Shown here: piece by piece, positions 16,201 to 19,200 of the stretch
How the letters are laid out: each line of letters opens with the position of its first letter
Numbering within the stretch: the stretch's first letter is position 1
Assembly (NCBI GenBank): GCA_001938485.1
Contig: MQRK01229322.1
Location: 4,949 to 68,948 of the forward strand
Direction of reading: 5' to 3'
From: Girardia tigrina
Taxonomy: Eukaryota
Length of the DNA stretch: 64,000 nt
Program-made: the position numbers and the translations under genes
Notes under the pieces: generated by a model
Database searches by the model: none
Seen by the model: only the letters and a program-made list of their open reading frames with translations
Told to the model about the DNA's origin: nothing

Positions 16201-19200
16201 TGCTCCACTTATTTTTCGATTATCTCATCTGCTTTGCGGAACGCAAGTGACGGGTCACCGCAACCTTAAGGAACTTAACTCTATGTGATCTTTCATCAAA
16301 TCCAAAATAGATTTTTCTTTTAAAAATGCCGCTCGCGTTTTATCTTTGCAAGTATTCCCTGGGACCTTCTTATATCTCAGAATCGCATCTGGAGTCAAGT
16401 AGGGTGTTACCAGTAGGATTTTCCTCACTTCTGATAATCCCATAATCTTTGAATACATGTTAAAACTTATCAGGAATTCTTCTAATTTGTGTTCGGATCC
16501 ATCAAATGTTTCTGTACCTTTGATGTTCGAAGTAACGTAGTGTGAAGTCGTCCTGTTAAGAGAACTCATAGATTTGACAGAACATTTATTACATTCACAA
16601 TTTTGATCATATTTATGATGATCAATAGTATTACTTTCACTTAATTCCATCACTCAATGTTTTAATACTCCTCCTTACAATCTGAACTAACTTGAAGAAA
16701 GTTATTTTATTTTAAATATTTAATTTAAGTTTATTGGATAAAATAAAATTACTTTTCATAATCATTTTTAAACATTAATTTGATTTTAGTTATTTAAAAA
16801 TTTACAAAAATAAGATCAATAAAATTATTTAAAAGTTACAATAATAAAAATTAAAAATTTGAATATTAAATCTAAATTTAAATAAATTAGTTTCAGATAA
16901 TAAGAATTAAAATATCAATCATCCATCTGATTAGGAGAGGCACAATCCCATATCAATACACAACATTCAAACATGCAAGCACTATACAAAAACATCCACA
17001 CACCAAATATTCCTCACAGTCCCATAACAATCATGAAAGTTTACCGATTAATTTCTAATGATTCTATTGTTTTATGACTCTTAAGAGAAATATATGCCCT
17101 TATTTTTTATATTTTACTGCTCAATATTTTGATAAAGTTATAATGAAGTTACCTTTCTTCAATATTTTTACAAGATCTTTTATAATAGATACAAACATAC
17201 TTAAAATTGTTAGTTAAAAATGTGATGTGTTGGAAAAGAAAGAAAAAACCCTTGAAATCAACATAAAAAGTTAGTTTCGAAAAACTTATTCACCTCTATG
17301 AACGTTATTTTTCTATACTTGTGTGATTTACAAGTGATAAATGACAATTTTTATTGTGCAAATATGAGTCTTTTTATCTATATTTAAAGTTTAACATTTA
17401 TTAGATATATAAATAATAAACTTCATAATCGATTTTAATTTAATATTTAACATTACTTTTAGTTTAATACTTGGAATAAAACTCATCGTATGGGAAAACC
17501 TGTTACTAAGAATTTTCTACAAGATGTGAATAAAGAATTAAGTCAACAAACCCTACGAGTTACAACAATTATTGTAATTTTTTCAATGTATTGAAATAAA
17601 AGTAAGACTTTTTTAGGACCCCCCTTTTGTGCTTCATCCGGGAAGAGATGCAAATAATATGATTTCAAAAAACCCTGAACATTGGGATGGATTCTGTGTG
17701 AGACTGTTAAAATTGATAGCAAAAGACCGAAACTTCAATTTTACACTAGAAGAAGTAGAAGATAAAAAATATGGAGAAATTATAGTGGAGGATGGAATTG
17801 AGAGATGGAATGGTTTAGTTGGATCTTTAATGAATCACGTAATACCTATATTAATTATTTTCAACTTAACTTAATTCATAGAAAGCAGATCTTGCCGTTT
17901 CTTCGTTAACCATAACTTATGATCGAGAAAGAGTAATTGATTTTACGACTCCATTTATGAATCTTGGAATTAGCATAATATATAAAAAACCAAAACCAAC
18001 TAAGAAGGAATTATTCTCTTTTTTATCTCCTTTATCAGCTCCAGTAGGTTCATTAATTTAGTATTAATATTTTCTATACATATTTTTTTATTTTGAAAAT
18101 GAATTTGAAATTAAAAAGTATTAAATTATTTTATTCTAGGGCTTTGAGACCTTTTAATTCTTGCTAGTCTTCTCTCCCACTCGTCACTCTGGTGTAGATG
18201 AAGACATATTCCGTTTTTGTTCACCACCAGACTCATAGGATGAGAAAAATATACCAGAGAGCAGCCCATTTCTTTCAACATCTTATTTCAATAAATAATA
18301 ACAAAATGTGCATATTTAGTTGATCTTTAGTATTTATTGTTTTTTTTTTGACTTTGGCATTTTTTTTCTCAAAGGACACCAGTACCCGAAAAAACACACT
18401 ATCGCAATATTGCTAATCTTCTTCGGTGGAATCTATAAGCTGATCAAGATACAAGTTCCGAGATACCCTATCTGGAGAGTGTGGATCAGCCCATTTTGAA
18501 ATTTCTTGAGCTTCCCTGTTGCAAACGACAAATCATTGATTGTGGTACCATGATTGAGCACCCCTTTGACTGTATTGGTGGACTTGGTACAGCCACGAAA
18601 GGAACATTTGGACTTTCCCCTCGCATTTGGATGTGCGATCCTAAAAGACAAATGTGTATCTTCGGGATAAGTCGTTTGCTCCACCACCGTTGAAATAGTC
18701 TGGGTGACTGTTGCTGGTTGAAAGTCGGTCGTTTGGATGAGTGTGGGTTTTCATCTCTGTCTGGATTGTCGCTTCTTCTGTTGGATTGCGCTGATGATTC
18801 TGTCGGACGTTCATTGATATTCTCCCTCACTTCTATTCGATGATCTTTACGCAGATGCCTCGTGAACCATCCTTTCGTTTTGTAACCTTTGCTGCATTTG
18901 GTACATTTAGACGATTTTTCATCTTGTTGGAGCTAAAGCTGGATGCTTACTGTGGATTAATGAATACTTTTTCTTACACTGAATTCCGATTCCTCTGGTC
19001 TTTATTATTAAAATCCACCGAAAACTTTAAGTGTATCCCTCCAAATGCATCATTAAAAATACATTAACGCAGTTTCCTTATTTAGTGCTCATTATTATAA
19101 AAAACTGTGACACTAACAAATTGATATTTTTTATTAAATTATTTTTTTAATTATTATTAAAACCGTTATGCGAATTGGAATAAAATTTAGAGTGGACTAT

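Follow-up and report, generated by a model that had tools for sequence, protein, structure and literature searches.

The window, that is, the whole stretch of 64,000 nucleotides of Girardia tigrina DNA analysed here, carries on its minus strand a decayed and truncated copy of a Ty3/gypsy retrotransposon, which belongs to what we call family A. The copy begins with a 465-bp 5' LTR (17018-16554, TGTGAGG...CTTAACA, i.e., of the TGT...ACA type), delimited by the end of homology, by other copies and by contig ends. The gag frame (15508-16650, minus strand) opens within this LTR, is predicted to encode a capsid-like helical domain and two CCHC knuckles, and is interrupted by several stops and frameshifts beginning at about 16270. 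It is followed by the start of pol (15290-15478, minus strand), which matches residues 1-63 of the homolog P0009 and after which the copy is truncated. In the gag/pol overlap (15513-15559, minus strand) the heptamer G GGA AAC precedes a strong hairpin (z = -5.75); judging by these two elements, the site is likely a -1 frameshift signal.

Results

The element is placed in Ty3/gypsy by its domain order and its reverse transcriptase (RT), as read from the predicted proteins. P0009, which is 89% identical to the RT piece in the window, has the order protease-RT-RNase H-integrase; it can be followed along 51026-53644, and its beginning aligns beside the window gag. The best match among solved RTs is that of Ty3 (E 5e-25), retroviral RTs scoring 6e-6 or weaker; LTRs of the form TG...CA/TA, a short 5-bp target site duplication (TSD) and a polypurine tract (PPT) before the 3' LTR are all present. 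The integrase does not lie before the RT, which speaks against Ty1/copia. A chromodomain at the C-terminus of the integrase is absent from the precomputed Pfam domains of P0009, and pol ends at the PPT/LTR edge. The zf-CCHC match of gag has E from 0.0009 to 2e-8; a fold search with the helical domain of the AlphaFold model gave only capsids (Arc, copia, Ty3 or PNMA2) among its top 12 hits, dArc and Ty3 being nearest, with weak E-values (best 0.018).

A separate family-A insertion lies on the opposite strand. It consists of a decayed pol (51026-53647, plus strand) with RT, RNase H and integrase, and of a 3' LTR (53643-54093, plus strand) preceded by a PPT, 87% identical to the 5' LTR described above and containing the same open 32-codon frame. 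Its pol frame continues across the PPT and reaches a stop five bases inside the 3' LTR (53630-53647, plus strand); in most full-length homologs pol ends at the PPT-coded glycines or passes them. The TGG after this LTR at 54093 was considered as a primer-binding site (PBS) and rejected as flanking DNA, since pol and the PPT precede the LTR. At 50944-51016 (plus strand) the first 73 bp of the LTR occur once more (97% identity with 53643-53715), fused directly to mid-pol at 51026; this joint is an internally deleted or rearranged copy. Elsewhere in the window, 12393-12571 and 12759-12937 form an inverted repeat of 179 bp with 99% identity, and the element 12393-12937 that it bounds is either MITE-like or an assembly artefact; a perfect 173-bp inverted pair occupies 25571-25743 and 26799-26971.

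The 3' edge of the 5' LTR at 16554 is real rather than an artefact: homology with 53643-54093 stops there, and public contigs (42, 24 and 26) diverge at this position into unrelated flanks. The earlier note on this DNA had fixed the edge at the same position, and had also called on two solo LTRs as edge evidence. One of them (48174-48671, minus strand; family B1, 62% identical, with its own open 32-codon ATG frame) is flanked by a perfect CTATA TSD. The other (54526-54936, minus strand), an old solo LTR of a related family with a remnant in-frame ATG, has a TSD matching at 4/5 positions (CTTCT/TTTCT) and is too decayed to fix an edge; its family gave only decayed relatives and was left out of the counts below.

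The sequence directly past the window LTR edge is GGACGACTTC, and not TGG, as had been noted before. From this the earlier note concluded that the clade has no tRNA PBS, and it named an alignment of junctions across copies as the way to refute itself. Such an alignment places TGG directly after the LTR elsewhere. A genome search gave 41 matches, of which the 30 best loci, the window copy included, were read: the junctions of the 29 other copies begin with TGG (24), TGA (4) or TGT (1), the exact 7-mer TGGCGAC being present in 18/29 (L003-L005 are identical to one another), and among all 30 loci it is the window copy alone that does not start with TG. A pattern in which the first four PBS bases were left free found 423 junctions; by hand count of the first 100 listed, 77 read TGGC, 86 read TGG and none reads GGAC. 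All contigs from four public runs that cover 16553 and 16551 have the TGG version, and in family B, to which the solo LTR 48174 belongs, 663 exact junctions of the LTR with TGGCGAC were found, against none in the control. The window PBS (16536-16553, minus strand), a decayed site for tRNA-Arg, thus departs from most copies at its first and third base by point substitutions; a deletion at the junction was considered and rejected, the copies being collinear. The missing primer site is decay in the window copy, and the PBS of its relatives is ordinary. In the other copies the last A of the LTR together with the TG that follows it makes a second in-frame ATG, which opens the residues M-A-T.

A partner for the bases after the LTR was found among the host tRNAs. 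The genes for tRNA-Arg(ACG) and tRNA-Arg(UCG) end in GTCG and, with CCA added, are complementary to TGGCGAC; the duplex with the intact family-A PBS is predicted at -18.7 kcal/mol for ACG and -14.0 kcal/mol for UCG. Gag-linked PBSs match tRNA-Arg(ACG) over 7-14 nt. Family A itself has seven contiguous Watson-Crick bases only, so that for this family the isoacceptor is not fixed by pairing. Four loci whose AGTCG ends pair better with the family-A PBS (L085, L087, L106 and L108) were rejected, as they are not tRNAs by ARAGORN or Rfam. These and related loci share a repeat end that resembles a tRNA T-arm and begins TAGGGATGT; it is probably the terminus of a DNA transposon. We also note four tRNA-Arg genes in tandem at L107:116-1274, one of them with a GCG anticodon, which is unusual in eukaryotes.

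The primer appears to have left traces of itself in the genome. All nine genomic matches to the tRNA 3' half with CCA lie directly behind an LTR-like end, two of these being family-B ends. Exact reverse copies of tRNA-Arg(ACG) including the CCA extend over 36-39 nt in eight loci, halting near tRNA position 37; at L096 the copy takes in the whole tRNA (exact length 42 nt) and has G at wobble position 34. Inosine is read as G, which fits this base; alternatively, it may come from the GCG-anticodon tRNA-Arg gene that the genome also has. In three further junctions the copied stretch is exactly 18 nt long (L154 being identical to L174) and ends at the position just before A58, which is described as the plus-strand stop in HIV-1 (PMC8599865). 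The LTR-tRNA fusions are found at L092, L096, L102, L111-L116, L142, L154 and L174; the tRNA-copy loci L113, L143, L154 and L174 continue into gag, and most others do not. We interpret such junctions as the outcome of plus-strand synthesis that went wrong on a tRNA-Arg(ACG) primer, in effect fossils of priming, and they likely record modified bases near positions 58, 37 and 34. The primer is most likely tRNA-Arg, ACG isoacceptor, if pairing and copied junctions are taken together.

The gag frame was then considered across families. The earlier note held that gag begins inside the LTR and that the integrase att end is therefore coding sequence. In the window, the ATG at 16650 is located exactly 32 codons before the edge-spanning codon, and the frame is open across the LTR edge (16555-16650, minus strand, in frame with gag); this part of the claim stands, and the use of that ATG by ribosomes is a presumption discussed below. 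The coding att end is likewise supported as an open frame across the edge, and more widely than in family A. Over the last 32 LTR codons of family A the gag frame is stop-free in 26/30 copies, and either other frame in 0/30; across families, frame 0 contains 0.0-1.3 stops per copy and frame -1 contains 6-9.

A further sample of junctions was drawn by the PBS pattern alone, which gave 2,360 matches; 82 of these loci were read and hand-grouped together with family A and the tRNA-copy loci. Eight of 70 sampled loci were excluded, six having no gag or LTR relatives and two too little upstream DNA; families C4 and P6, found via queries containing the extension, do not enter the ATG tally. At 93/113 junctions there is an in-frame ATG from which the frame stays open to the junction, and a majority of copies have one in 17 of the 22 families, as against 3.8 families expected from shuffles and 1/22 and 7/22 in the other frames. 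The computed P of 1e-9 overstates the case, since the families share ancestry; with approximately four lineages it becomes about 1e-3. The majority ATG is missing in five families, namely F (2/6 copies) and four single-copy groups. The extensions comprise 5-7, 10-14, 22 or 31-32 codons, and the database homologs have 19-49 residues before M-A-T in 7/7 cases. Third-position T exceeds stop-free shuffles in 5/5 families (P 0.0005-0.012), and no three-base periodicity was observed in a U3 control. The upstream DNA is LTR in family D, where 16/16 loci have unrelated flanks past the end, and in family E2, whose 16 loci include four TSD-flanked solos and three PPT-preceded 3' LTRs. As a reading frame, the opening of gag inside the LTR is supported as clade-wide, beyond family A.

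The extension itself is weakly conserved. The pooled pN/pS of its in-LTR codons is 0.75 (0.51-1.32 per pair; 0.54-1.51 in an ungapped version) versus 0.36 for gag codons about 1-90 in five families, and its amino-acid identity between five families is 26-45%; nevertheless, the frame is kept. It is predicted to be a disordered N-terminal extension (pLDDT about 35 in the AlphaFold model). Selection appears, from these comparisons, to keep the frame and the start more than the peptide sequence. In families A, B1, B2, C4 and H, 2-4 out-of-frame ATGs follow the LTR ATG before the junction is reached, which makes the junction ATG a poor sole start in the families with long extensions. The context of the junction ATG is good in A and B, where it could be the true or a second start. 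Against a simple picture, a further ATG lies 24-25 nt upstream in 15 of the 23 family-A copies that carry the 32-codon ATG. In 13 of the 23 (e.g., L012 and L019) there is, 24 nt before the in-LTR ATG, an upstream ORF of six codons that closes immediately ahead of gag; it is absent from the window copy.

A weak hint at the RNA 5' end comes from contigs of two studies that start at 16688/16689, 38 nt 5' of the ATG at 16650. For X7 and X9 an RNA source is on record (one study), and for X4 it is a guess; all sources are assembled contigs, in which graph branching could mimic a start at 16688. The motif TTAGTT at this place (16685-16690, minus strand), which we take to be initiator-like, marks a candidate transcription start. 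The LTR also contains AATAAA within the in-LTR codons (16585-16590, minus strand), 37 nt from its end, a candidate poly(A) signal; no poly(A) loose end was found among the contig matches listed.

Discussion

We consider it quite probable that Gag of this clade is translated from the LTR: the relatives of the window copy have a tRNA-Arg PBS together with a gag frame that runs from an in-LTR ATG through that PBS. Transcription would start near 16688, if the weak hint from the contigs is followed, and give a 38-nt leader; ribosomes would start at the ATG at 16650, translate the 32 codons within the LTR, continue with M-A-T over the att end and the PBS, and proceed into the capsid domain. Between 16650 and the capsid domain the frame is observed and its translation presumed. 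The same RNA would be primed by tRNA-Arg, probably ACG, on TGGCGAC directly after the LTR. The R and U5 parts of both LTRs are copied from the RNA 5' end, so the ATG and the open frame are passed on to all 3' LTRs and solo LTRs. The pairing with the primer is probably limited to 7-14 nt because the PBS is coding.

One may propose instead that tRNA-Arg is the primer as above and Gag starts at the junction ATG, the upstream ATG being tolerated in frame or giving a minor longer form. The junction ATG is indeed intact in 94 of the first 100 listed copies, and M-A-T is invariant in 7/7 homologs, although the PBS forces M-A-T in any case; the weak amino-acid constraint upstream, the disorder of the extension and its variable length point the same way. 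This is difficult to reconcile with in-frame ATGs far above chance in LTRs that cannot be aligned, with the codon periodicity, with the intervening out-of-frame ATGs in long-extension families and with contigs that begin 5' of the LTR ATG, and we regard it as unlikely. If the frame were never translated and stayed open because R/U5 is constrained at the nucleotide level (by the poly(A) signal, the att site or RNA structure), this would agree with the AATAAA located among the codons, 37-43 nt from the LTR end, in six families (A, B1, B2, C4, H and P6) and with pN/pS near 1 in some pairs; the exclusion of stops from one frame only, and the persistence of that frame between families so divergent in amino-acid sequence, make such an origin very improbable.

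The model of the earlier note, in which the clade lacks a tRNA PBS and self-primes like Tf1, or is primed by a protein or an RNA fragment, retains hardly any probability. The window GGACGACTT is able to form a helix with 16693-16684, near the candidate start, at -6.3 kcal/mol; however, this helix needs the two private substitutions of the window copy, and with the PBS common to other copies the pairing drops to -2.6 kcal/mol, the two candidate 5' ends giving -2.6 and -2.3 kcal/mol. As many as 4% of LTR 14-mers pair with the window 12-mer equally well or better. TGG in most copies, its match to tRNA-Arg and the existence of tRNA-copy junctions are further against this model. Translation from the LTR with tRNA-Arg priming is, in our opinion, the preferable reading.

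Ty1 offers a comparison. Its AUG presumably lies inside the LTR, in agreement with the leader length and the PBS position given next. In Saccharomyces cerevisiae the Ty1 PBS, which occupies nt 94-104 of the RNA, is described as part of the GAG ORF (PMC4974528), and the 5' UTR as 53 nt long (PMC3592414), so that GAG starts before the PBS. The clade studied here resembles Ty1, at the level of the reading frame, in a PBS inside gag, a gag start 5' of the PBS and a short PBS. It differs in its superfamily, with the order protease-RT-RNase H-integrase; in its primer, tRNA-Arg versus the initiator Met of Ty1; in an in-LTR part of 5-32 codons; in an LTR that abuts the PBS with no spacer, which creates the second ATG; and in a predicted -1 rather than +1 frameshift. 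With Ty3 and metazoan tRNA-primed gypsy elements it shares TG...CA LTRs, a 5-bp TSD, the PPT, a TGG PBS and CCHC knuckles, and its predicted Gag fold gives weak matches to the capsids of dArc and Ty3; in Ty3, however, the 5' PBS segment is described as adjoining the 5' UTR and not as part of GAG (PMC4974528), whereas here the gag frame opens upstream of the PBS. According to a review, Ty1 and Ty3 inherit their own PBS and not the tRNA copy (PMC7472051), which is what a coding PBS needs.

Tf1 is reported to self-prime (PMC3592414), and Skipper to have lost the TGG PBS and to have a polypyrimidine tract instead (PMC5006619); the likeness to both is limited to the appearance of the decayed window copy, the clade having kept TGG and a matching host tRNA. 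For DGLT-A of Dictyostelium a PBS with the same first seven bases is described, which is separated from the LTR by 2 bp and for which a matching tRNA was not found (PMC5006619); here the PBS abuts the LTR, and tRNA-Arg matches it and has left copies. The homologs obtained from databases were almost all unnamed. The CsRn1 clade, for which a tRNA-Trp primer and a 4-bp TSD are given (PMC2582038), differs in both respects from the tRNA-Arg and the 5-bp TSD found here. An in-LTR gag start of a Gypsy element was not found in full-text searches of the literature, which covered few subscription papers and few if any Repbase entries.

It is tempting to go further and to propose a large animal Gypsy clade with no non-coding internal ends, in which gag begins in the 5' LTR and pol ends in the 3' LTR, the att sites, PBS and PPT are codons, and Gag has two forms, from the LTR AUG and from the AUG at the LTR/PBS joint; tRNA-Arg lying over the second AUG might switch the RNA from translation to copying, and thousands of solo LTRs might bring promoter-plus-AUG cassettes into host DNA. 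Taken as a whole this proposal is doubtful, and we offer it as such.

Conclusions

A new mode of priming is refuted, and the case cautions against judging a PBS by a single decayed copy. Left standing is the overlap of gag with both LTR and PBS in a Gypsy clade, in the manner of Ty1, i.e., a convergent design across superfamilies, by which the integrase ends and the primer site come under protein-coding constraint. The rare LTR-tRNA junctions preserved in this genome name the primer and mark copying stops near positions 58 and 37, and thereby provide a sequence-only route to primer identity. Family D has at least 2,251 LTR ends located just behind an in-LTR ATG (the ATG is present in 15 of the 16 loci read); LTRs of this type are candidates for supplying host sequence with start codons.
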